Source of the DNA: Candidatus Woesebacteria bacterium
GTDB taxonomy: Bacteria > Patescibacteriota > Microgenomatia > UBA8517
Direction: 5' to 3'
DNA length: 64,000 nt
Assembly (NCBI GenBank): GCA_016700095.1
Contig: CP065002.1
Span: 28,074-92,073, forward strand
Both the position numbers and the translations under genes were made by a program. The notes below the pieces were generated by a model. The model made no database searches. It saw only the letters and a program-made list of their open reading frames with translations, and was not told where the DNA came from. This document shows positions 14,476 through 58,483 of this stretch, one piece after another; the stretch's first letter is position 1; each line of letters starts with the position of its first letter.

Positions 14476-14496
14476 AGTTAAACATTAACATAAGGC

Positions 14497-14630
14497 TTGA
14501 TAATGTTGCAATCTGTTGGTAAACTGCGAACATGGTACCGAGCATAACAATTGTTTCAATGATGATGGCAGACTTCTCATAGGAGGTTTGTCTTATCAGT
14601 GGAAAAACCTCCGAACGGAGGTTTTTTTTT
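14497..14630 (+). promoter_or_regulatory. Candidate Met-sensing transcription attenuator: promoter, leaderless 16-codon leader ORF with MMM, and alternative antiterminator/terminator hairpins
   Basis: A TTGATA-N17-TAAACT promoter sits at 14497-14525. An ATG at 14532 opens MVPSITIVSMMMADFS* (14532-14582), with three consecutive Met codons at 14559-14567. GGAGGTTTG (14583-14591) can pair with AAACCTCC (14605-14612) as an alternative to the terminator stem CCTCCG/GGAGG (14608-14621) plus a T9 run (14622-14630). Confidence 0.4.
14603..14630 (+). terminator. Rho-independent terminator (attenuator terminator)
   Basis: AAACCTCCGAACGGAGGTTTTTTTTT is a GC-rich stem followed by a 9-T run. Confidence 0.6.
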
Positions 14631-14716
14631 GAGCAAATATATCAGTTTACCCAAGTAGACACACGAAGACTTGTTGAATATATCAACAATGAAAGTTGTG
14701 TGTTTTAAATCACATA

Positions 14717-15544
14717 ATGAAACCGAAATTTATTACCCTAATAAACGACTGTAAAGACGATAATGCCAAAAGCAGACAAACAACAAGGTGGTCTGCTCTT
14801 TTCCCTTCGATCAATGTGTCGTTTGTCGGCGTAGACAGTTCTTTGGGTAAAAATTCAACCATCGAAGCCGCCGGAAATATTATCGACATTCTCGACGCCA
14901 GCATGCATGAACCCGGTATTTTAGCAGTAAACGTTGCGCCTCGCGGAACCAAGACCGACGGTGAAAACGGTTCAAGTTTCTGTTATTTTTGGATAGGAAA
15001 TGTGTTAGTTGTCTCAACAGTCAAAGATTACAACCTGTCGCTAGTCAAAAAATTCGGCATGGTAAAAAATATTAATATTCTCGATATTCCAACAATACTC
15101 AAGAAATTAGTTAAAGCTCAGCTCGTATCTCGTCAGCTTGCCGAACATATTTCCAAGTCACAATTTAGGAGTTTTGATTTCCAACCCAGGGTCGCCAAGT
15201 GGATTTGCGATGGAGTTGATGTTCCTTCCAAAAAAATACCGATTAAAACAATTAGTGATATACCCCAATCTGCTTGGTGTATCGATTCCTTTGGGAACAT
15301 TAAATTAACCTTGACAGCACAAGATTTCTGTTCCTCTACTCCACCTTGTATAATCAAAACAAGCATTGGAGTTTTCAAATATTATAAACATCTCAAAGAC
15401 GTACCAGATGGCGACACGGCGATATACATTGGAAGTTCGGGATGGAAAAAACACAGGTTTCTTGAACTGGCGACACAAAATCGAAAACCGGGTGCGGCCA
15501 AAAAACTTGGTGTCAAAATTGGTAGTGAAATAAATATTCTGTAA
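14717..15544 (+). CDS. SAM hydroxide adenosyltransferase-like protein (DUF62; fluorinase/chlorinase/SAM-hydrolase family)
   Basis: Three family-like motifs are present: INDCKDDNA (cf. FlA SDLGTTDDS), FCYFWIGNVLVVST (cf. YIYIAPNNGLLT) and CIDSFGNIKLTL (cf. IDHPFGNVWTNI). It lies 15 nt upstream of metG. Confidence 0.5.
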   Translation: MKPKFITLINDCKDDNAKSRQTTRWSALFPSINVSFVGVDSSLGKNSTIEAAGNIIDILDASMHEPGILAVNVAPRGTKTDGENGSSFCYFWIGNVLVVSTVKDYNLSLVKKFGMVKNINILDIPTILKKLVKAQLVSRQLAEHISKSQFRSFDFQPRVAKWICDGVDVPSKKIPIKTISDIPQSAWCIDSFGNIKLTLTAQDFCSSTPPCIIKTSIGVFKYYKHLKDVPDGDTAIYIGSSGWKKHRFLELATQNRKPGAAKKLGVKIGSEINIL

Positions 15545-15559
15545 AACAATATCACATTT

Positions 15560-16993
15560 ATGAACAAAAATTATTACATTACAACAACCCTACCCTATGT
15601 AAATGCCTTACCGCACATGGGTTTCGCGCTTGAGATAATCCAAGCAGATATACTTGCCAGGTACAACGAAAGACTTGGTAACACTGTTTTTTTTAATTTC
15701 GGTACCGACGAACACGGACAAAAAATATACCAGAAGGCGGTGGCGTCGGGAAAACCTCCGCAAGATTATGTTGATGAATTTGCTGCAAAATTCGATGATT
15801 TAAAAATAGCGTTAAATCTAAGTTACAATAATTTCATACGCACAACCGACGCACATCACAAAAAAGCAGCTCAAGAAATATGGATCAGATGTCGCGATAA
15901 CGGTTACATCGAAAAAGGGATATATAAAACGAAATACTGTATCGGCTGTGAACTCGAAAAACAAGATTCTGACTTGCAAGACGGCAAATGTCCACTGCAC
16001 CCCACTTACGAAATTCAATATATTGAAGAGGAGAATTATTTTTTTAAATTTTCCAAACTCCAACTCAAGCTACTCGACTTATATCAAGCAAATGAAAATT
16101 TCGTCGTACCAAAACACAGGTATACAGAAATCATAAACTTCGTTAAAAGCGGACTAAACGACTTTAGTATCTCCAGACAAAAGGAAAAAATGCCGTGGGG
16201 AATTGAGGTTCCCGATGACAACAAGCACGTAATGTACGTATGGTTTGATGCGCTGACGAATTACATCTCCGCTCTTGGGTGGCCGGAGAACACGTCAAAA
16301 TTCAACGATTATTGGGGTTCTATCGCTAACCCAAATGCGATTCAAATTGCCGGAAAAGACAATTTAAGACAACAATCCTCTATGTGGCAGGCAATGCTTC
16401 TTGCTGCAGGTTTACCGCCAACCAAGCAAATCATAATTCACGGATTCATTACATCCGGTGGGCAAAAGATGAGCAAAAGCTTAGGAAATGTTATTAACCC
16501 CTTCGAATATGTCGATACTTATGGAACAGATGCGGTAAGATATTATCTTGTTTCAAAAATTAATCCTTTCGAAGACAGCGATTTTACCAAAGAAAGCTTT
16601 GAGCTGACATACCAGGCTGACCTCGCAAACGGTTTGGGCAATCTGGTGTCAAGAGTAAGTAAAATGTGTGAAACACAAGGAGTGGTCGCAAATTCTCACA
16701 ACGACTTAAAATTTAGTCCACTGATAGTTAATCATTTGACATCTTATCGTTTCGATATGGCTATTAAAACAATCTGGGACAGCATTAAAAAAACCGATAT
16801 GTGGATTAACGACAACAAAGTGTGGGAGTTAACGGGTGAAGAGAAAAATAAAGCCTTAAGCTATCTTGTTGGCATAATATTACAGATAACGTATGATTTA
16901 TATCCATTTATGCCCGAAACTGCTGACAAAATTAAAAAGCAGTTTACCAGCGATAGTATTAAATTGTCTAATCCCCTTTTCCCAAGGCTTTAA
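15560..16993 (+). CDS. metG: Methionyl-tRNA synthetase (short, class I)
   Basis: It has the PYVNALPHMGFA (HIGH-type) motif, a Zn knuckle CIGCELEK...CPLHP, the KMSKSLGNVI motif and the anticodon-binding helical domain, in 477 aa. Confidence 0.85.
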   Translation: MNKNYYITTTLPYVNALPHMGFALEIIQADILARYNERLGNTVFFNFGTDEHGQKIYQKAVASGKPPQDYVDEFAAKFDDLKIALNLSYNNFIRTTDAHHKKAAQEIWIRCRDNGYIEKGIYKTKYCIGCELEKQDSDLQDGKCPLHPTYEIQYIEEENYFFKFSKLQLKLLDLYQANENFVVPKHRYTEIINFVKSGLNDFSISRQKEKMPWGIEVPDDNKHVMYVWFDALTNYISALGWPENTSKFNDYWGSIANPNAIQIAGKDNLRQQSSMWQAMLLAAGLPPTKQIIIHGFITSGGQKMSKSLGNVINPFEYVDTYGTDAVRYYLVSKINPFEDSDFTKESFELTYQADLANGLGNLVSRVSKMCETQGVVANSHNDLKFSPLIVNHLTSYRFDMAIKTIWDSIKKTDMWINDNKVWELTGEEKNKALSYLVGIILQITYDLYPFMPETADKIKKQFTSDSIKLSNPLFPRL

Positions 16994-39525: not shown

Positions 39526-40155
39526 ATGATATTAAAAATTGATTTCACTTCATTAAGCAATGATGCTATCAACAAAGCCGTGTCGGTTTTAACTAATGGA
39601 GGTGTTGTCGTTTATCCAACCGATACGTGTTATGGTATCGGTGTAAACGCTTTTAATATACATGCCGTTAATAAACTTTATGATATAAAAGGCAGAGATG
39701 TTACTAAGCCGACACATGTGGTGGTTAGAGATTGGAAAATGATTGAAGATTTAGCTTACCCCAACAGCCTCGCCAAAACATTATTTGATAAATTTCTTCC
39801 AGGTCCGCTTACGATGATTTTAAACAAAAAACCAAATGTTTTGGATATTTTAACAGGTGGACTTTCGACACTTGGTGTCCGCATTCCAAATAGTCACTTA
39901 ACAAGCAAGTTGTCAAAATTGGTAGATTTCCCATACACCACCCCATCCGCCAACAGAACGGGAGAGCCATCCCCATATTCCTTTGAGGAGGTCATGAAGG
40001 TTTTAGATCTAAATAAAGTTGATCTAATTCTTGATGCCGGATTTCTTCCCCACAACCCACCGTCTACTATAGTTGATGTAACCAAAATGCCTTACGAAAT
40101 GTTAAGGGAAGGGCCCATAACCAATAAACAAGTAAAGTATATCTTGGGTTTATAA
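39526..40155 (+). CDS. tsaC: L-threonylcarbamoyladenylate synthase TsaC/YrdC family
   Basis: GGVVVYPTDTCYGIGVNAFN... and ...LGVRIPN... (YrdC/Sua5 domain), 2 nt after tsaD. Confidence 0.75.
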   Translation: MILKIDFTSLSNDAINKAVSVLTNGGVVVYPTDTCYGIGVNAFNIHAVNKLYDIKGRDVTKPTHVVVRDWKMIEDLAYPNSLAKTLFDKFLPGPLTMILNKKPNVLDILTGGLSTLGVRIPNSHLTSKLSKLVDFPYTTPSANRTGEPSPYSFEEVMKVLDLNKVDLILDAGFLPHNPPSTIVDVTKMPYEMLREGPITNKQVKYILGL

Positions 40156-40179
40156 ATACTTAACAATAAGATATAATTG

Positions 40180-40346
40180 ACTAATTAAGGCGCTTTAAAT
40201 TTGGTTAGTCCCCAAATTAGCCTGTAGCTGACAAGAAACTTAAGTTACACGGATGCAAGCCGTAATCTGCAAAATTAAGTAATAGTTGAGGTGGTACCTG
40301 TCCCGGAAACGGGATCCGCAACACGCTGAGATTGGCGTGTTTTTTT
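40180..40346 (+). promoter_or_regulatory. Candidate T-box riboswitch leader upstream of valS
   Basis: GAGGTGGTACC (40288-40298) matches the T-box core AGGGUGGNACC. The rho-independent terminator AACACGCtgagattgGCGTGTTTTTTTT (40320-40347) lies immediately downstream, and the stem-loop GTTACACGGatgcaagCCGTAAT lies upstream. Its position 5' of an aminoacyl-tRNA synthetase gene fits a T-box. Confidence 0.4.
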
Positions 40347-40371
40347 ATGATTAAAAAGTTAATATAAATGT

Positions 40372-42648
40372 ATGGAAAAACAATATAATCATTGTGATTA
40401 TGAAAAGAAAATCTATAAGATGTGGGAAGATGGTGGATATTTTAAGGCCGAAATTGATCTTAATAAAAAGCCATATACAATTCTTCTTCCACCGCCCAAC
40501 GCTAGTGGAAAAATGCATACAGGCAACGTTCTTATGATTGCAATTGAAGACTTACTTATCAGGTGGAAGCGTATGCAGGGTTACGCCGCACTTTGGATCC
40601 CTGGAACAGACCATGCAGGATTTGAAACACAAATTACTTTTGAGAAACAACTGGCTGAAAAAGGTGATTCACGCCTAAACTACGACAGACAAACTTTGTA
40701 CAATATGATTTGGGAATTTGTACAAGGAAACAAACACTTAATAGAAAATCAAATCAAAGAAATGGGTGCAAGTGTTGATTGGAATAGGTATACCTTCACC
40801 TTGGACGATAAGGTTATACGGACTGTTTATGAAACCTTTAGTAAACTTCACAATGACGGCTTAATTTACAAAGACGACTACATGGTCAACTACTGCACCT
40901 TTTGCGGAACGACGTTTGCAGACGCTGAGGTGTCACATAAAACTAAAATTTCGCCTTTGTACTACGTTAAATATCAACTCGTTGATATCACTTATCAGAA
41001 AAAGGCTTATATTGTAATCGCCACTACTCGCCCAGAAACGATTTACGTAGATACTCATGTGGCAATTAATCCCAGCGATACAACCAAAACAGAATTGATT
41101 GGCAAAAAAGTCCTAAATCCTCTCACCGAAAATGTGATGGATATTGTTGCCGATGAATTTGTAGATCCAAAATTTGGAACCGGAATCGTCAAGTTAACGC
41201 CAGCGCACGACAAAAATGATTACGAGGTGGCCAAAAAAATCAACCTTCCAATAATTCAGGTTTTTGGGATGGATGGGAAAATGAATAGCAACGCGCGTGA
41301 ATTTGAAGGATTGTATATTAAACAAGCTCGAGAAAAAGTAGTAGAACAACTAATAAAAAGTGGAAAAATTGACAAGATAGATGAAAATTATGTCAACACC
41401 GTCGCTTTGTGCAAAGGTAAACACCAAATTGAACCAATGATAATACCCAATTGGTTTGTTAAAGTCGACAGTCTTAAAAAACCTGCACACGAAGCCGTTA
41501 AAGACGGCAGAGTCACTATCTACCCAAAATGGCAGGAAATTAAATATCACAGATGGATGGAAACCATGCATGATTGGCCTATTTCCCGGCAAGTAGTTTG
41601 GGGAATTAGAATACCAGTGTGGTACGAGGTGTCACAAAATCCAAATTTAGTAATTACATTTCTTACAGAGAAAAGAAACGTTATAACCGGCAAACTTAGC
41701 GAGATATTAAAGGATCACGCGCTTGGTGAAATTAAAAACGGTCTTCAAACACTTGTTGCAACCAAAGACAGCAAATATGTTATTTCCAGCGATCAACCCG
41801 GAGAAAATTATTTGCCTGAAACCGACACTTTTGACACATGGTTTTCGTCTGGTCAGTGGCCACTCGTTACACTAGGATATCCAGAATCTTTGGATTTTAA
41901 GTATTTTTACCCCACAGCAGTTCTCGAAACAGGTTGGGAAATACTCCGACTTTGGATATCCCGAATGATTATGTTCGGATTATATTTAGCAAACGATGTA
42001 CCTTTCAAAAACGTTTATCTTCACGGAATGGTTCGTGCAATAGATGGACGAAAAATGAGCAAAAGCTTAGGAAACAACATTAATCCGGATGAATACATCA
42101 AAGAATACGGTGTGGATGCACTTCGCATGGGACTTATTGCCGGAACAGCAAATGGCAAAGATTTTAATTTTCCACACGACAAAGTCAAATCGTACAGAAA
42201 CTTTGCAAACAAAATTTGGAATATCGCCCGATTTATGAATATGTTGTTTGAAGAATTCGAAAACGAAGACATCGAAGAATTTGACGATCTTGCTTCAAGT
42301 CCCGCTTCTGATGAGCAGTTAAACATTAACGACAGAAATATTCTTAAACTCCTCGATGAGACAATCAACAAAGTTGATTCTTCGCTTAACAAATATCGTT
42401 TTTCCGATGCTTCCGAAGCAATCTATCATTACATATGGAATGAAGTTGCTTCAAATTACATTGAAGATGTTAAGTTAAGAAAAGGAAACAATAAGCGGGT
42501 TGGATTAATTGTTTTAAAACATGTATTTCTTAACAGCATGAAACTGCTTCATCCTTTTATGCCCTTTGTAACCGAGGCGGTCTGGCAAGAAACAACACAC
42601 AAGAGTACCAGCCCTTTGATCATCTCCACTTGGCCTACATCTAAATAG
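40372..42648 (+). CDS. valS: Valyl-tRNA synthetase (compact form lacking C-terminal coiled coil)
   Basis: It has PPPNASGKMHTGN (the ValS-type PPPN + HIGH region), IVIATTRPETIYVDTHVAINP (the ValS CP1 editing-domain TTRPET motif) and KMSKSLGN. LeuS (TTRPDT) and IleS were considered and rejected. Confidence 0.75.
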   Translation: MEKQYNHCDYEKKIYKMWEDGGYFKAEIDLNKKPYTILLPPPNASGKMHTGNVLMIAIEDLLIRWKRMQGYAALWIPGTDHAGFETQITFEKQLAEKGDSRLNYDRQTLYNMIWEFVQGNKHLIENQIKEMGASVDWNRYTFTLDDKVIRTVYETFSKLHNDGLIYKDDYMVNYCTFCGTTFADAEVSHKTKISPLYYVKYQLVDITYQKKAYIVIATTRPETIYVDTHVAINPSDTTKTELIGKKVLNPLTENVMDIVADEFVDPKFGTGIVKLTPAHDKNDYEVAKKINLPIIQVFGMDGKMNSNAREFEGLYIKQAREKVVEQLIKSGKIDKIDENYVNTVALCKGKHQIEPMIIPNWFVKVDSLKKPAHEAVKDGRVTIYPKWQEIKYHRWMETMHDWPISRQVVWGIRIPVWYEVSQNPNLVITFLTEKRNVITGKLSEILKDHALGEIKNGLQTLVATKDSKYVISSDQPGENYLPETDTFDTWFSSGQWPLVTLGYPESLDFKYFYPTAVLETGWEILRLWISRMIMFGLYLANDVPFKNVYLHGMVRAIDGRKMSKSLGNNINPDEYIKEYGVDALRMGLIAGTANGKDFNFPHDKVKSYRNFANKIWNIARFMNMLFEEFENEDIEEFDDLASSPASDEQLNINDRNILKLLDETINKVDSSLNKYRFSDASEAIYHYIWNEVASNYIEDVKLRKGNNKRVGLIVLKHVFLNSMKLLHPFMPFVTEAVWQETTHKSTSPLIISTWPTSK

Positions 42649-49518: not shown

Positions 49519-49527
49519 TGTGGATAA
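49519..49527. promoter_or_regulatory. Perfect DnaA box (TGTGGATAA = reverse complement of TTATCCACA) 51 nt upstream of dnaA
   Basis: An exact 9-mer in the rpmH-dnaA intergenic region. Confidence 0.6.
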
Positions 49528-49577: not shown

Positions 49578-51053
49578 ATGGATCATGATGTAAATAGCAC
49601 CTCCGACCAAGAGGTAGAAACAAATGATGATTTAAGTAAACCATCAAATAATTCTAGTGTCCACACAGAAGACGACACAGTTATCAACAGTCCGGGCAAC
49701 AAACTTAAAATCTGGCACGAGATATTGGAAAGTATTAAAGTTTCAGTTTCCGGAGCTATCTTCTCAACCTGGTTTACCCAAACCCATTTATCGGAACTAA
49801 AAAATGTTGGAAGCAGATATTTAGCTGAGGTGGGATGTTCGTCTAGTTTTGTCAGAACCACACTTGAGGGGAGATATTTCGGCTTAATACAGGATGCTTT
49901 GAACAAAACTCTCGATAAAGAATGTGACGTGCTTTTTATAGTAAAACAACAATCAGCTTCACAAGATTTTTCTTCTGTTCCTCTTTTCCAAGAACCTGAA
50001 AAAAACGAGGAAGGAATATTATTCTTAATTTCAAAATCTAATCTAAGAAAGAACTTCACTTTTGATAATTACGCGGTTTCTTCTACAAATCAAATGGCGT
50101 GGGCAGCTGCAGACGCGGTTTCTAAAAATTTGGGAAATGCATATAATCCACTTTTCATCTGGGGTGGGGTAGGGGTGGGCAAAACACATCTAATGCACGC
50201 TGTCGGCCATTGTGCGTTAATCAAAAATTCAAGTTCAAAAATTCTCAGTTGTACGGGTGAAGATTTTACCAACGATATCGTAGAGGGAATTAGACACAAA
50301 AATACAAAAAATGTACGCAATAAATATCGAAAACTGGATGCCCTGTTGGTTGACGACATTCAATTCATTGCCGGCAAAGATACTGTTCAAGAAGAATTCT
50401 TTCATACTTTTAATTCGATTGTTTCCGTTGGGGGACAAATTATTATCACCTCGGACAGACCTCCAAGCGAGATCTCGAAACTGGAAGAACGCTTACGAAG
50501 CAGATTTGAAGCAGGGCTTATTGTAGATATCGGAAATCCCGATTTTGAATTAAGATGCGCAATTGTCCAAATAAAAGCTGCTGATAGGGGAATTAATATT
50601 CCCATGGACTTGATTCAATTAATTGCCGGCAATATTGATTCGGCGCGCGAAATCGAAGGATTTCTCACCAAATTATCATCCGAGGTGATACTTAATAAAA
50701 ACGAAATAAGCAAAAATCTAATTGAAACCATTTTGTCGAAAAAAGGCGTACTAAACGGTGATACTCAAATCAAAGCTCAACCGCAAGAAGTTGTCGCCGC
50801 CGTGTCAAAGTATTATACGCTTGGCAAAAGAAGTCTATTGGGCGCTTCACGAGCGCGACCTGTTGCCAGACCACGTCAAATACTCATGTATCTTTTACGG
50901 ATGGAGTTAGCGCTGCCGCTCGAAGAGGTTGGGCGACTTGTTGGAGGACGAGATCACACCACCGTTATACACGCTGTGGATAAAATAACCAAACTAGCTT
51001 CGCTTGATGTGCAAACACGACAGGACATTAGGGGGATAAAAAACATCCTTTGA
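49578..51053 (+). CDS. dnaA: Chromosomal replication initiator DnaA
   Basis: It has the N-terminal domain WHEILESIKVSVSGAIFSTWF, the AAA+ motif NPLFIWGGVGVGKTHLMHAVG and the C-terminal DNA-binding domain ...RPRQILMYLLRMELALPLEEVGRLVGGRDHTTVIHAVDKI. Confidence 0.9.
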   Translation: MDHDVNSTSDQEVETNDDLSKPSNNSSVHTEDDTVINSPGNKLKIWHEILESIKVSVSGAIFSTWFTQTHLSELKNVGSRYLAEVGCSSSFVRTTLEGRYFGLIQDALNKTLDKECDVLFIVKQQSASQDFSSVPLFQEPEKNEEGILFLISKSNLRKNFTFDNYAVSSTNQMAWAAADAVSKNLGNAYNPLFIWGGVGVGKTHLMHAVGHCALIKNSSSKILSCTGEDFTNDIVEGIRHKNTKNVRNKYRKLDALLVDDIQFIAGKDTVQEEFFHTFNSIVSVGGQIIITSDRPPSEISKLEERLRSRFEAGLIVDIGNPDFELRCAIVQIKAADRGINIPMDLIQLIAGNIDSAREIEGFLTKLSSEVILNKNEISKNLIETILSKKGVLNGDTQIKAQPQEVVAAVSKYYTLGKRSLLGASRARPVARPRQILMYLLRMELALPLEEVGRLVGGRDHTTVIHAVDKITKLASLDVQTRQDIRGIKNIL

Positions 51054-51287
51054 GGATAAATATTTAGTAGTATCAACATATCAACAAATTACACACACTT
51101 ATAAACATCTTTATTAACATATCCTTGAGGTACATATCCACATTCGGCTTTGTGCACAAGTAGGAAGCGATATCCACTTGTCAACACTACCTACTACTAC
51201 AACTACTATTTAATAAGAAAGAAACACAATTTGTAAATTTTATACACACTTGGAAAAGTCGGACTTATTTCGTATACTTTTTTTATA
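51054..51287. other. Candidate oriC segment (dnaA-dnaN intergenic, AT-rich with DnaA-box-like 9-mers)
   Basis: Box-like 9-mers are TGAGGATAA (51051-51059), ATATCCACA (51134-51142), ATATCCACT (51170-51178) and TTATACACA (51240-51248, which fits TTATNCACA). The 234-bp non-coding segment also has AT-rich runs. Confidence 0.5.
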
Positions 51288-52400
51288 ATGAAACTACAGG
51301 TACTTCAAGAAGATCTGACGCGTGGATTAAATATTGCTGCTCGATTTGCAAGTCCCAGATCGCAATTACCAATACTAGGAAATATTTTGTTTAATGTTCA
51401 AAAAACAAAACTAACACTTTGTGCTACAAATCTTGAAACATCAGTATCTATTCCAATTGGAGCAAGTGTCAAAGAAATGGGTAATATAACGATTCCTGCA
51501 AGAGTAATAACGGATATTGTTGCAAATTTACCGAGAGGACAAATAAATTTGGAAGCCGCTAAAGAAAACCTGGTAGTTTCTTGCGAAAAATATACATCAA
51601 CTATATCGGGGACAAACGATGCCGATTTTCCAAGTGTTCCGACAGCCTTGGGAAAGGAGAAATCAAGTTTTCCAAAGGAATTGTTTACCGGCGCATTGTC
51701 TCAGGTGATTTTTGCGGCTAGCTCTGACGAAACGAGACCTGTTTTAACAGGTGTACTAATTATTTTTCAAAAGAATTCATTAGTGTTTGTTGCCACAGAC
51801 GGATTTAGACTTTCTCAGAAGTCGGTTGTTGCAACTGGAGTGGGGGATACTGACCAGGTAATTCTTCCTAAAAATACATTACTTGAACTGCTTAGATTAG
51901 CCAACGAGAGCTCGAGTATTGATATTGCATTTCCAAAAAACGAAAGTTTGGCACTTTTTGGACTAGGAGATATTGTTCTTTCTTCGAGAATTATTCAAGG
52001 TGAATTTCCAAATTTTTCAAAAATCATTCCCCAAACGACAAATATAAAAATTGATTTGGACAAAGAAGAGTTGGTTAGGTCGGTTAAACTGGCGAGTGTA
52101 TTAGCTCGTGACAGTGCTAATGCAATTACTTTCAAAATAGATAAGACGGGATTGGTTGCGACATCACAAAGCAGACAAGCCGGGAAGCAGGATATTCAAA
52201 TTGATGCACGAGTTGAATATTTAGAAGGCAATGATGATGTACTTGAAATAGCCTTTAATTATAAATTTATAGAAGATTTTCTGTCGTCTGTAAAAGGGGA
52301 TAGAGTCGTCGTAAAATTAACTTCAGCTAATGCACCGGGAGTATTTGAGGATCCGCAAGACAAAGATTATCTTCACCTTATCATGCCTGTGAAGTTGTAA
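51288..52400 (+). CDS. dnaN: DNA polymerase III beta sliding clamp
   Basis: It begins MKLQVLQEDLTRGLNIAARFAS... and has a three-domain beta-clamp architecture in 370 aa. Confidence 0.85.
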   Translation: MKLQVLQEDLTRGLNIAARFASPRSQLPILGNILFNVQKTKLTLCATNLETSVSIPIGASVKEMGNITIPARVITDIVANLPRGQINLEAAKENLVVSCEKYTSTISGTNDADFPSVPTALGKEKSSFPKELFTGALSQVIFAASSDETRPVLTGVLIIFQKNSLVFVATDGFRLSQKSVVATGVGDTDQVILPKNTLLELLRLANESSSIDIAFPKNESLALFGLGDIVLSSRIIQGEFPNFSKIIPQTTNIKIDLDKEELVRSVKLASVLARDSANAITFKIDKTGLVATSQSRQAGKQDIQIDARVEYLEGNDDVLEIAFNYKFIEDFLSSVKGDRVVVKLTSANAPGVFEDPQDKDYLHLIMPVKL

Positions 52401-54758: not shown

Positions 54759-56762
54759 TTATTTTATAATATTTGTACCGACATCTGTTTGCCTGATTGC
54801 ATTGATCGTACTTGGTGACGGTATCTGATTATTTTGTTTTATAACTGTATTTTTTTGTTTTTGCAAAATCTCTCTTGGATTAGTTGTGATTAAGCCGTGT
54901 TCTTCAGGTGATGCAACAATACGGATTGGAACATGGTGATTGCCGGCAAAAAATATTCCTTCTCCGATGTTTGCTCCAAGCAGTAACTGCCTCTCTCCCT
55001 GAGATAAATAGAACACATCACCAATGCGGTCGATTGCGGCAGGAGACTGCTTGAGGAGAATTCTAAGGGCACTGTTTGTAACAATAGCTTTACCAATATC
55101 TTGTGCCAAAAAATCCTCCACGTCTTGAGTGATTGTCGTTAATCCAAGATAGTACTTTCTCGCTCTTTTTACGATCGACCATAGGAATTGTGCACTGTCT
55201 TCGTACCTCATCATATGCCATGCTTCGTCGACAATTAGAATACGTTTTCTCATATCTCTTTTTACTTTGGTCCAAATAAAATCAAGAATAATAAACATGG
55301 CAATCGGTCTTAATTCGTCCCGTAATTCACGGACACCAAAAACCGTAAACGGGTTGTTGATTTCAATGTTGGTGTGTTGGTCAAAAATTCCAACATAACT
55401 TCCTTTAACAAATTTTTCGATACGCGCAGCCAGGTCGAGTGCGGTTTCGACTTCCATGCCGATTAACGCCTTGTAAAGATCTTCCATCAGCGGAGGTTCT
55501 TTCTTTTGAGTTTCTGGGTCTTGGGTGATTCCCTTGGCTTTGTAAGTTGCAACAAGAGCTCGGTCGAGCATGGCGTCTTGTTGGGCGTTTAAGCTTCCCA
55601 TAATAATTTTAAAGAGTGAGTGCAATGACAAAATCTTTAGGCCCAAATTATTTTCACCCTCCTCGTAAATCTGTGACAAATCAAATGGATTAATTCTTTG
55701 CGGTGAGCTGAAAGAGAAATCAATATACTGTCCATCAACAGCATCGGCGAGTACTTTGTATTCGGATTCGGGATCAACAGCGATGATTTCAACACCAAGC
55801 ATGAGTGATCGCACGGATTCCAATTTTACAAAATAGCTTTTTCCTGCTCCGGAAGTCGCAAACACTGTCATGTTGTGATTTTCCAAAGAGAATCTGTCAA
55901 AAATAATGAAAGAGTCATTCTGGGGATTAATACCATACAATATTCCGCTGTCACTGGTTAGTTCTGTGGACGTAAGAGGGAAAGTAGTAGCAAGGGAGGT
56001 AGTATCCATGTTTCTGGTGATATTTAACCTATCAAGTCCAAGAGGAGAAGTTGACAAAAATCCGTTGTTCATATCAAGTGTTGCATTTCTTGGAATAGCA
56101 AGCAGTGACTGAAGAGTGGATGCAACCTGTCTTGTTACGAAATTTAATTGTTCAATATCTGCTGCTCTAATTGTTATATAAAATCCAAATTCAAAAAAAT
56201 GTTCAACCCCTTTTACAAGAGACTCTTGTAACATCCGGGCGTCATCCAACTTTGCCTGTGTTGAAGGGTTGACAATTTTACCGCGTTCCAAATCGGTTAT
56301 GATTTCGGCTTCCATTTCGGCGATTTTGTGTCTGAAATCTTCAAGAATACCTTTTATTTCAACCGGATAGACAAAAAAGGCAATATCTAATGAAGCGTTA
56401 AAATTAATAATTTGCTCTAACCATCCAGGTGAAACATAGCGTGGGTAACCTGCAATAAATAGCGTGCGAAAATAGACATTGTTAATTCTAAGATGGTTAA
56501 AATCAACCTCTATTTCTTGAGGGGCAACCACATCGAGGACATTTGCATCCTTGTCGAGAATTTCGGATATCGGATCGCGGAACTTTGGTTTTACAAATTC
56601 GTCGCGAGTTATTCCTCCTTCTTTGTTTGATTTGGATGTTTTATCTTGGATTTGATTAACCAACTTCTGTTGCGGAGTTTTTCCGTCTGTTTCGGGAGTG
56701 GGATCAACAACATTGTGCACCTCCGTCTCTTTCTGAGTATTTTTTTTACCAAACAGTTTCAT
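54759..56762 (-). CDS. VirB4/TrbE/CagE-family T4SS ATPase (ATPase portion)
   Basis: It has NVYFRTLFIAGYPRYVSPGWL (the conjugative VirB4 GYPR region), the Walker A FATSGAGKSYF, DPESEY and the Walker B ILIVDEAWHMM. Confidence 0.75.
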   Translation of the reverse strand: MKLFGKKNTQKETEVHNVVDPTPETDGKTPQQKLVNQIQDKTSKSNKEGGITRDEFVKPKFRDPISEILDKDANVLDVVAPQEIEVDFNHLRINNVYFRTLFIAGYPRYVSPGWLEQIINFNASLDIAFFVYPVEIKGILEDFRHKIAEMEAEIITDLERGKIVNPSTQAKLDDARMLQESLVKGVEHFFEFGFYITIRAADIEQLNFVTRQVASTLQSLLAIPRNATLDMNNGFLSTSPLGLDRLNITRNMDTTSLATTFPLTSTELTSDSGILYGINPQNDSFIIFDRFSLENHNMTVFATSGAGKSYFVKLESVRSLMLGVEIIAVDPESEYKVLADAVDGQYIDFSFSSPQRINPFDLSQIYEEGENNLGLKILSLHSLFKIIMGSLNAQQDAMLDRALVATYKAKGITQDPETQKKEPPLMEDLYKALIGMEVETALDLAARIEKFVKGSYVGIFDQHTNIEINNPFTVFGVRELRDELRPIAMFIILDFIWTKVKRDMRKRILIVDEAWHMMRYEDSAQFLWSIVKRARKYYLGLTTITQDVEDFLAQDIGKAIVTNSALRILLKQSPAAIDRIGDVFYLSQGERQLLLGANIGEGIFFAGNHHVPIRIVASPEEHGLITTNPREILQKQKNTVIKQNNQIPSPSTINAIRQTDVGTNIIK

Positions 56763-56763
56763 A

Positions 56764-57426
56764 TCAGTTAAATATCCCCCTTTCTTTTATGGGCGGCTCG
56801 GGATTGTAAATGTTATAAACCAAATCGATAAGCTCATCTGTTTTAAGTTGCCTTAAATTTAAACCTAATCTCCTAGCCTGTCTTGCGATATGTTCACGCT
56901 TGGGGTAGAGAGCTATTTTAGCTTTCCTTACGACATAAGCTTTTGTATACGGGACACCGGGTTGTGTTTGTTTACTACCAGGTAAAGAAAACGATTTTGA
57001 AACACCAAGTTCGTATTGAGTAAACGGCAGTACAATATAAAACTTTTTACTTAAAACATTTTTCTTCTTTATTGAATCGCTCATGAACTTTTTGTAACCA
57101 CGCATAATTTCTGTTAGTTTGGGATTAGATATGCTTTTTTCAGCGTCGTCCAGCAAAATTAAGTAATTAGAAATGTCTTTTTGAAGACTTCTGACCACAA
57201 TTTGAATATGAAAAGTAAGAGAATTCAAAAGTCCCGCATAACCGGCAATTACAGCTTCCTGTTCGTTTTCGCTAAGTAGGCCGAAGTTAAGCGAGGTGGA
57301 TTCCAAAATAAGTGTTACGGCACCGTTTTTGTAAAGCACCAGGTCTTCAAAAATTTCGGCAATGGGCAAATGATTTTGTGTTGTTGTTGATAATGGACGA
57401 TCGGGAAAAAATAATGGTAATTTCAT
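56764..57426 (-). CDS. VirB4 N-terminal-domain-like protein (separate ORF; stop 1 nt before ATG of the ATPase ORF)
   Basis: IAEIFEDLVLYKNGAVTLILESTSLNFGLLSENEQEAVIAGYAGLLNSL resembles the N-terminal (CagE_TrbE_VirB-type) region normally fused to the VirB4 ATPase. The junction is TGA-T-ATG, so the two ORFs are in different frames. Confidence 0.4.
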   Translation of the reverse strand: MKLPLFFPDRPLSTTTQNHLPIAEIFEDLVLYKNGAVTLILESTSLNFGLLSENEQEAVIAGYAGLLNSLTFHIQIVVRSLQKDISNYLILLDDAEKSISNPKLTEIMRGYKKFMSDSIKKKNVLSKKFYIVLPFTQYELGVSKSFSLPGSKQTQPGVPYTKAYVVRKAKIALYPKREHIARQARRLGLNLRQLKTDELIDLVYNIYNPEPPIKERGIFN

Positions 57427-57427
57427 A

Positions 57428-58483
57428 TTAGTTGGTTAAATTGCTGTTTGTCGCCGTTATTGCTATTGGGTCGATTAGAGATCCGGTTACGTTTAGTTTT
57501 ACAGGATCAAACATTAACCCTTCCTTTTCTGTAATAATTTCGTATGTACCGCTTGGCAGTGGTGTTACAATGCCAAAATGTCCAAGCGTATTGCTTTTTA
57601 GAGCTCTTACCGGGCGATTGTCTTCATCTCGTATTTCCAGAATTGCCCCACTAATTATTTTTCCGGCACCATCCATCACTTGACCGACCAAGATGTTTGG
57701 CTGGGTTGGTGGAATTGGAGGAGCAGACTCCGAAGAGAAGACGGCTTGTTTTACGAAACTGTTTGCTTGGCTTGCAAGCGAACCGGTAACTGTAGTCGTA
57801 GCTTTTGCTACGTCGTTGTCACTTACCGTGATATTGACAGCATGGTCAATTAACGGCTGAGTTGCTTTTTGATTTATTGCGTTACTACTAACCGGTGTTG
57901 GTGTTGCAAGCGGGACTTTAATCGTATCTGTATTAGTGGGCATTACCGGTTGATTGGTGTTACCGAAATGCTCCGATATTTTAACTAAAAATTGTTTCTC
58001 TGTTGTTTCAAGTCCCGACAATGCTTTGGTTGCCTCCACTTGAATACCTACTGGCGCCATTGCAGACTCTGTGGGCTCGGAAGGTACTTTCTGCGACATT
58101 TGTTGTTGGATTTGAGCCGGAGTTTGGTTTTGTGCCAATGTTTCCATCATTTCGGCGTCGGAGGCAAAAAAGGAAAGCGGTTTTGTTTTTATCCATGTAA
58201 AAATAGTTGGTGAATAAATCGATTTAACAAATAATATTAACCACTTTTCAAGCGGTCTGTCCTCGAACGGGAAAAAAGCCAAAGCAATCCCAAAGAGGAA
58301 TGAAATTAGCATGAGTGGAAGTTTTATGAAGGTGAGTAAATTTGTCGAATACAGGAGCAGTGCAATCAGTGCACCCGCTGCTACTTGAAAAAATTGTTTT
58401 AAGGTCATGTCACCAACAAGCCTAAATTGATAGGAGGTAATTTCTTGCGGAATTGGATGCTGGACTTCGAATTCTACTGACAT
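57428..58483 (-). CDS. VirB3/PrgI-like two-TM protein with C-terminal transthyretin/carboxypeptidase-regulatory-like domain
   Basis: YQFRLVGDMTLKQFFQVAAGALIALLLY plus a second TM resembles the (G)(L/P)(T/S)(L/F)(R/K)Q motif of Gram-positive VirB3-like proteins. The C-terminus GQVMDGAGKIISGAILEIRDEDNRPVRALKSNTLGHFGIVTPLPSGTYEIITEKEGLMF is a CarboxypepD_reg-like beta-sandwich. Confidence 0.4.
   Translation of the reverse strand: MSVEFEVQHPIPQEITSYQFRLVGDMTLKQFFQVAAGALIALLLYSTNLLTFIKLPLMLISFLFGIALAFFPFEDRPLEKWLILFVKSIYSPTIFTWIKTKPLSFFASDAEMMETLAQNQTPAQIQQQMSQKVPSEPTESAMAPVGIQVEATKALSGLETTEKQFLVKISEHFGNTNQPVMPTNTDTIKVPLATPTPVSSNAINQKATQPLIDHAVNITVSDNDVAKATTTVTGSLASQANSFVKQAVFSSESAPPIPPTQPNILVGQVMDGAGKIISGAILEIRDEDNRPVRALKSNTLGHFGIVTPLPSGTYEIITEKEGLMFDPVKLNVTGSLIDPIAITATNSNLTN

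Follow-up and report, generated by a model that had tools for sequence, protein, structure and literature searches.

We found that the valine--tRNA ligase gene (valS) of this Candidatus Woesebacteria genome is preceded by a leader RNA (positions 40184-40348 of the 64-kb stretch of DNA analysed here, hereafter the window) that, to judge from comparison with related loci, is very probably a reduced T-box-type element attenuating transcription according to the charging state of tRNA-Val. The initial annotation had proposed a T-box riboswitch in front of valS, and a T-box-type leader with a terminator is indeed what lies there, but it is a reduced variant and does not have the canonical architecture known from Firmicutes. 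Its assignment to the T-box class is supported by a UGGUACC bulge, an A1 helix, a Stem II, a Stem IIA/B element with its F-box, a RAG motif, and the sub-threshold match of one homologous leader, L022, to the Rfam T-box model RF00230. The names that we give to the parts of the valS leader are those of the RF00230 map of L022, carried over to the window.

What places this leader above chance is a combination of homologous leaders, a leave-one-out profile match and covarying helices, whereas the core motif and the fold taken alone are weak indicators. Homologous leaders precede valS, or a DUF1232-valS gene pair, in nine other Microgenomates-type contigs, and of 22 distinct valS loci of Microgenomates type that were inspected, 10 have a leader: the window locus, L002, L020, L021, L022, L023, L027, L028, L031, and L032. 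The remaining 12 loci are leaderless (L001, which is the same as L010, and L003, L009, L011, L012, L013, L016, L018, L025, L026, L029, and L030). The L002 leader was obtained from ValS genome and metagenome scans, which yielded few loci, and the other eight through the contigs of individual ValS homologues. Despite differing 5′ neighbours (tsaC, tRNA-Pro, hypothetical genes, or divergent genes), the whole arrangement of ~160 nt is common to the ten loci, and ValS identity among the hosts is 60-70%. The L002 contig (CAYWFF010000007.1) is labelled 'uncultured Gammaproteobacteria bacterium'; it encodes a ValS with 60% identity to Woesebacteria ValS, the leader is present, and the bin is probably mislabelled. 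At two loci (L023, 1551-2000; L032, 1051-1504) the leader is followed by a small DUF1232 gene and then directly by valS, and because this gene sits between leader and valS, the leader would there control a two-gene operon; at L025 (1268-1498) a DUF1232-valS pair occurs without a leader.

An nhmmer profile built from the nine other leaders matched the 64 kb only once, at 40194-40346 (E=5.4e-16). Likewise, a covariance model of six leaders (R1) recovered the four that had been held out with 53-71 bits (E 1e-9 to 1e-13), and nothing else rose above noise in the window or at the leaderless loci. In the covariation alignment, which was guided by the model and whose pairing figures are for that reason biased towards the structure, 89.8% of cells are paired as compared to 66.5% in shuffles (0 of 500 reach 89.8%), the proportion falls to 31-47% when partners are slid by one to three columns, and 16 of the 21 pairs vary on both sides, including all 11 of the distal Stem I helix and Stem II. 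A strand-by-strand table, built independently of the model alignment, gave the same helices. For the motif and fold alone, the window shows no enrichment of TGGNACC (7 occurrences, where shuffles give an expectation of 20.7), and the single-sequence fold of the whole leader is unexceptional (z=-1.57).

All elements of the leader lie on the forward (+) strand, as does valS itself (40372-42648; 758 aa), the presumed regulated gene. Its product is a class I synthetase (Pfam tRNA-synt_1, PF00133, E=2e-117) with an anticodon-binding domain (Anticodon_1); it is 100% identical to a database valine--tRNA ligase from Candidatus Woesebacteria, and its closest relatives come from Woesebacteria and Amesbacteria MAGs. 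A spacer of 216 nt separates the valS start from the gene upstream (39526-40155), a Sua5/TsaC homologue that follows tsaD; valS and metG are the only synthetase genes within the window. The T-box core-like GAGGTGGTACC (40288-40298) and the terminator were both found 5′ of valS as first reported. The gap between them is 21 nt, within the 25 nt claimed, and the distance of 25 nt given from the end of the terminator to valS agrees with a T run that stops at 40346 and an ATG at 40372. A consensus scan predicted a promoter-like site (TTTATA, 17 nt, TATAAT) at 40149-40177, from which the leader RNA would be expected to start at ~40184, and a -10-like box (TATAAT, TATACT, GATAAT, or TACAAT) lies 5-25 nt 5′ of the conserved leader start in all ten leaders.

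The decoding half opens with a short Stem I of only 34 nt (40189-40222), composed of a base helix GGC/GCC (40189-91/40220-22) that covaries as RGC:GCY, an asymmetric internal loop GCUUUA/A (40192-97/40219), a distal helix AAUUUGG/CCAAAUU (40198-204/40212-18) of 7 bp, and an apical loop UUAGUCC (40205-11) of 7 nt; the specifier internal loop, AG bulge, and distal loop of a long Stem I, which offers a platform to the tRNA elbow, are absent. The hairpin noted upstream of the core in the initial annotation exists (40198-40218), but in place of the 9 bp given there it has 7 contiguous bp, extended by GGC/GCC. Across the ten sequences, all 6 pairs of the distal helix vary on both sides, with 96.7% of cells paired. 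Within the apical loop, we propose the valine codon GUC (40208-40210) as the specifier, which would most likely pair with the anticodon GAC of tRNA-Val. The G, U, and C columns are invariant in all ten leaders, the apical loops of the family being UUAGUCC, CUAGUCC, UUUGUCC, CUCGUCC (three times), ACUCGUCUC, CCCACGUCA, AGGUAAUGUCG, and AAGUAAUGUCG; GUC is the sole invariant triplet outside the discriminator, whereas the flanking stem varies, and in every leader, codon and regulated gene agree in their amino acid. The apical loop is a known specifier position in T-boxes with a short Stem I (PMC7583486) and is where TBDB places the specifier of the Ile class (TBDB preprint 10.1101/2020.06.17.157016). 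In addition, T-box specifiers favour C at the third position, the NNC type (PMC7583486; TBDB preprint 10.1101/2020.06.17.157016), a preference to which GUC conforms. Two observations on Stem I count against a T-box reading: the base 3′ of GUC is C in most members, including 40211, where a conserved purine would be expected, and where most members have GNUUGA as the K-turn-like GA motif of the Stem I base, 40192-97 reads GCUUUA.

Stem II (GUAGCU/AGUUAC, 40224-29/40243-48) encloses a conserved loop, GACAAGAAACUUA; all 5 of its pairs vary on both sides in the ten sequences, with 98% of cells paired, and the RF00230 alignment of L022 assigns the helix homologous to 40224-48 to Stem II. A different specifier, GUU followed by A at 40244-40247, had originally been put forward; the sequence GTTA is present there, but it forms the 3′ strand of Stem II, pairing with 40224-29 in a helix that covaries in all ten members, and it is not a conserved Val codon because the homologous bases are GCGG in L022 and L027. 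We also rejected as specifier a GUNA motif that follows a small hairpin (GUAA, GUGA, GUUA), which the RF00230 alignment of L022 identifies as the F-box CCGUNA of Stem IIA/B. This latter element (40250-40271) consists of Stem IIA (CGG/CCG, 40250-52/40260-62), found in nine of the ten leaders and followed by CCGUNA, an F-box-like CCGUAA (40260-65), and a predicted IIB pseudoknot, UGCA:UGCA (40254-57:40268-71). The IIB pairing occurs at the same relative place with varied sequence (UGCA:UGCA, ACUU:AAGU, AAUGC:GCAUU, AAGC:GCUU, and AGC:GCU), giving the predicted pseudoknot moderate support across the family, and the RF00230 consensus for IIA/B, CGG..CCGUUA, is matched in L022. The L031 leader (900-1067) is without Stem IIA/B, and the two helices of its Stem I, base and distal, are separated by an additional hairpin, GAAACG-AAAAG-CGUUUC, that may stand in structurally for the pseudoknot. 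Two other candidate features of this region were discarded: a long-range pairing from the single-sequence MFE, ACUUAA (40238-43) with UUAAGU (40275-80), is not conserved in L020 and others, and the start codon of a potential leader peptide (a 9-codon ORF from the AUG at 40254, with one Val) is not conserved.

Further downstream, AAG (40277-40279), inside the conserved AAAAUUAAGUA, is a putative RAG motif whose A and G columns (A94, G95) are invariant. It lies 12 nt 3′ of the F-box, a spacing shared with the ileS T-box of Mycobacterium tuberculosis (F-box 77-81, RAG 94-96; PMC11297988). The discriminator core, or antiterminator (40285-40322), comprises A1 (GUUGAGG, 40285-91/CCGCAAC, 40316-22), which contains a single A.G mismatch, the T-box bulge UGGUACC (40292-98) plus U, which lies between A1 and A2 and is invariant in all ten leaders, and A2 (GUCCCG, 40300-05, and CGGGAU, 40310-15, closed by GAAA). 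Both helices are maintained with differing sequences in every member. Bacterial tRNA-Val carries the discriminator base A73, and a U at the N of UGGN would therefore be expected, as it is found in all members. Stem III is visible only in L022 and not in the other nine members. The RAG-to-UGG gap in nine of the ten is 12-13 nt, of which 4-8 nt belong to the A1 strand, and a Stem III hairpin therefore cannot fit; a pairing of 3-4 bp, UUAA:UURR, is possible but clashes with the extended A1. In a review of T-boxes, Stem III is called indispensable (PMC7583486), and its absence, too, counts against a T-box reading.

The intrinsic terminator identified by a terminator scan (40320-40346) reads AACACGCU-GAGAUU-GGCGUGUU followed by a U run (in the DNA, AACACGCT-GAGATT-GGCGTGTT at 40320-40341 and a T run to 40346), and its local fold has 8 bp and -10.3 kcal/mol. 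Its overlap with A1 is the 3 nt AAC (40320-22), one strand of the three lowest stem pairs, which adjoin the U run. The proposed alternation of antiterminator and terminator is thus borne out as a mutually exclusive pairing, but not as the extensive overlap of canonical T-boxes. A terminator of 6-9 bp with a U run occurs in all ten leaders and overlaps the 3′ strand of A1 by 2-7 nt: L031, L002, L027, and L028 repeat the A1 design with a small overlap, their A1 strands carrying compensating changes, the overlap is 4-6 nt in L020, L021, L023, and L032, and L022 has the classical, extensive overlap of antiterminator and terminator. The terminator state (40272-40346) was calculated at -24.1 kcal/mol as compared to -14.6 kcal/mol for the antiterminator, the latter drawn by hand; typical energies in TBDB are -19.5 and -7.4, respectively. 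Because the terminator state is the more stable of the two, the default state would be OFF, as in known T-boxes. Counting against efficient control, a remaining hairpin of 5 bp, ACGCU/GGCGU with U's behind it, is possible alongside the antiterminator, at -19.9 kcal/mol for the two together. Since this hairpin could still form, the efficiency of antitermination is uncertain; antitermination may be leaky, or may depend on stacking outside the energy model.

The initial annotation had proposed a covariance-model search with RF00230 as a check, and for the valS leader we obtained no match at any threshold tried. RF00230 (Rfam release 15) had no match on the window at its gathering score and none at E<=10 on 40100-40420 (321 nt) or 40255-40350 (96 nt), and Rfam searches of the leader at E<=10 returned nothing beyond terminator-like families matched at chance level. 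RF00230 was likewise without a match in eight of the nine further members, whereas the positive control, the canonical valS T-box of an Oscillospiraceae locus (L005), scored 116.5 bits against a gathering score of 93; R1, for its part, did not match the L005 T-box at E<=10. The remaining member, L022, reached a sub-threshold 47.9 bits (E=7.4e-8) in an alignment that covers Stem II, IIA/B, Stem III, and the antiterminator and has 20 nt in place of the 85-nt Stem I core. This leader (1776-1938) is a mosaic: the 5′ decoding half hardly differs from that of L027, and the 3′ half has a canonical discriminator, Stem III (CUC-UGAAU-GAG), AAGGUGGUACC, and a fully overlapping terminator. Its structure suggests that the discriminator was reduced after Stem I had been shortened, or that modules recombined.

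Binding of tRNA, the choice of GUC as specifier, and the effect on expression are inferred from these sequences, as follows. Transcription of the leader would start from the promoter at 40149-40177, and uncharged tRNA-Val would pair through its anticodon with GUC and through its 3′ ACCA with UGGU of the bulge. The bound tRNA would stack on A1 (GUUGAGG:CCGCAAC) and stabilise it, A1 would withhold AAC from the three bottom pairs of the terminator by the U run, and polymerase would continue into valS. With charged tRNA, A1 would remain unstabilised, the more stable terminator would form, and transcription would end at ~40346. No tRNA-Val gene was found in the window, where tRNA-Cys is the only tRNA, or at the 22 loci searched.

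One could instead envision a T-box descendant that no longer depends on tRNA, whether as a decaying remnant that serves as a constitutive partial terminator or as an element acting on translation or mRNA stability. The leader at 40189-40346 has the weakest features of the family, having lost the GA motif, pairing A1 with a mismatch, and overlapping the terminator by 3 nt only; Stem III is absent, and the 12 leaderless loci of the 22 have lost the leader or never had it. However, five members keep the A1 design with compensating changes (GUUGAGG:CCGCAAC, GUUAGAGC:GCACUAAC, UUAGA:UCUAA), the overlap always takes the pairs adjoining the U run, which are those most important for termination, and GUC, UGGUACC, and the RAG motif are invariant in spite of a ValS identity of 60-70% among the hosts, which argues for ongoing selection. 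We thus regard loss of tRNA dependence as unlikely.

The tRNA-dependent reading also has to be weighed against a structured leader that binds a partner other than tRNA and resembles a T-box only superficially. Escherichia coli thrS is autoregulated by a tRNA mimic, and ValRS could be such a partner here, as could a small molecule; the lack of an RF00230 match in nine of the ten members, together with the absence of the long Stem I platform and the Stem III of known transcriptional T-boxes, would fit this explanation. However, the apical loop displays the codon GUC instead of GAC or UAC, the valine anticodons, and hence is no mimic of an anticodon arm. Moreover, several features of T-boxes, independent of one another, occur together in the correct order and spacing (the UGGUACC bulge between helices, the F-box with its pseudoknot, the RAG motif, and Stem II), and L022 links the 5′ half of the family to a canonical discriminator that RF00230 recognises. 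Taken together, these observations make a non-tRNA partner improbable.

It is more improbable still that the leader is an ordinary canonical T-box, a plain member of RF00230 missed for technical reasons. Core, terminator, and valS context are classical, and the same search does detect the Oscillospiraceae valS T-box; but a Stem I of 34 nt with its codon in the apical loop has no space for a specifier internal loop, AG bulge, or distal loop, even the best-scoring member, L022, stays at 47.9 bits against 93 with the 85-nt core replaced by 20 nt, and R1 in turn misses the L005 T-box. Finally, that a TGGTACC fell by chance beside the terminator of the upstream tsaC/sua5 gene would agree with the unenriched motif and the ordinary MFE, but is hardly credible and already contradicted by the comparative sequence data, namely the same 160-nt arrangement at ten loci with different upstream neighbours, a promoter-like site of its own, covarying helices, and the leave-one-out match (E=5e-16).

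Elsewhere in the window, a strongly structured leader (14490-14640, +; MFE -47.1 kcal/mol, z=-4.27) precedes an ORF resembling SAM-hydroxide-adenosyltransferase (14696-15544) and metG (15560-16993). It consists of a long hairpin followed by a terminator, AAAAACCUCCGAACGGAGGUUUUUUUUU, and AGGAGGUUU (~14581-89) could pair alternatively with AAACCUCC; neither Rfam nor R1 gave a match, and it may be an undescribed attenuator. A TGGTACC at 14533, 5′ of the same operon, was considered as a second T-box and rejected, as it had no R1 match and lies at a predicted transcription start. The segment 48453-52400, with dnaA (49578-51053), dnaN (51288-52400), clusters of DnaA-box-like 9-mers at 49519 and 50975-51248, and a change in the sign of the GC skew at ~48-52 kb, looks like a replication origin region. 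On the reverse (-) strand at 54759-58483, a VirB4/TraG-like P-loop ATPase (54759-56762) together with a PrgI-family protein (57428-58483) suggests a module for type IV secretion or of a conjugation-like kind.

The prevailing view assigns T-boxes mainly to the Firmicutes and a few other phyla. Because RF00230 does not see the valS leader family, a survey would record genomes of the candidate phyla radiation (CPR), to which this Woesebacteria-like genome belongs, as being without T-boxes; the TBDB survey searched with RF00230, and with an Ile-specific model in Actinobacteria only (TBDB preprint 10.1101/2020.06.17.157016). A full-text search of the literature, of incomplete coverage, found no paper joining T-boxes with CPR, Patescibacteria, or Microgenomates, and an earlier description elsewhere is possible. 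We are inclined to think, with less assurance than we attach to the tRNA-responsive leader itself, that the family is an undescribed CPR subclass of T-box that terminates transcription without an elbow platform or Stem III and in which a lengthened A1 captures the bottom 2-6 nt of the terminator. If so, it would be the smallest natural transcriptional T-box with a Stem II domain and would add a major uncultivated lineage to the range of the T-box mechanism. It would also put to the test two claims (PMC7583486), namely that co-transcriptional decisions require fast, platform-based capture of tRNA and that Stem III cannot be dispensed with. At ~160 nt, the leader offers a compact natural scaffold for engineering, and a probable symbiont with a genome of 1.27 Mb would appear to have retained feedback control of an aminoacyl-tRNA synthetase.

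Among known systems, the family can be set beside the ileS T-boxes of Actinobacteria (Mycobacterium, Nocardia) with a short, or 'ultrashort', Stem I (Sherwood et al. 2015, as cited in PMC7583486 and PMC11297988). In both, Stem I is short and without a tRNA-elbow platform, and its apical loop carries the codon; at similar spacing there follow Stem II, the F-box-bearing IIA/B pseudoknot, a linker, and a RAG motif, and both have a UGGN bulge between A1 and A2, an NNC specifier, and an aminoacyl-tRNA synthetase gene downstream. They differ in host (CPR of Microgenomates or Woesebacteria-like type as opposed to Actinobacteria), in codon and gene (GUC and valS as opposed to AUC and ileS), and in the base after the codon, which is mostly C in the CPR leaders and a purine in the actinobacterial ones. 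Nine of the ten CPR members, furthermore, lack a visible Stem III, and where the actinobacterial ileS T-box is translational, hiding the RBS, all ten CPR leaders have an intrinsic terminator with a U run.

With canonical transcriptional T-boxes (RF00230; e.g., Bacillus subtilis tyrS and the L005 valS T-box), the CPR valS leader shares the UGGUACC bulge, a terminator more stable than the antiterminator, Stem II, the IIA/B pseudoknot, a promoter of its own, and, in the case of L005, the position upstream of valS. In contrast to them, it is without the Stem I core of 85 nt, which holds the specifier internal loop, the AG bulge, and the distal loop; nine of the ten members also lack Stem III, and its A1 has 7-8 positions, an internal mismatch, and a terminator overlap of 2-6 nt in most members. 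The minimal T-box of the glyQS type is likewise naturally reduced and acts on transcription, as the CPR leader presumably does, but the reduction is the opposite one: glyQS keeps a long Stem I with its platform and does without Stem II and IIA/B. Transcriptional T-boxes are held generally to need the long Stem I platform (PMC7583486), and the CPR valS leader, if functional, is at odds with this account because it would act on transcription without either that platform or Stem III.
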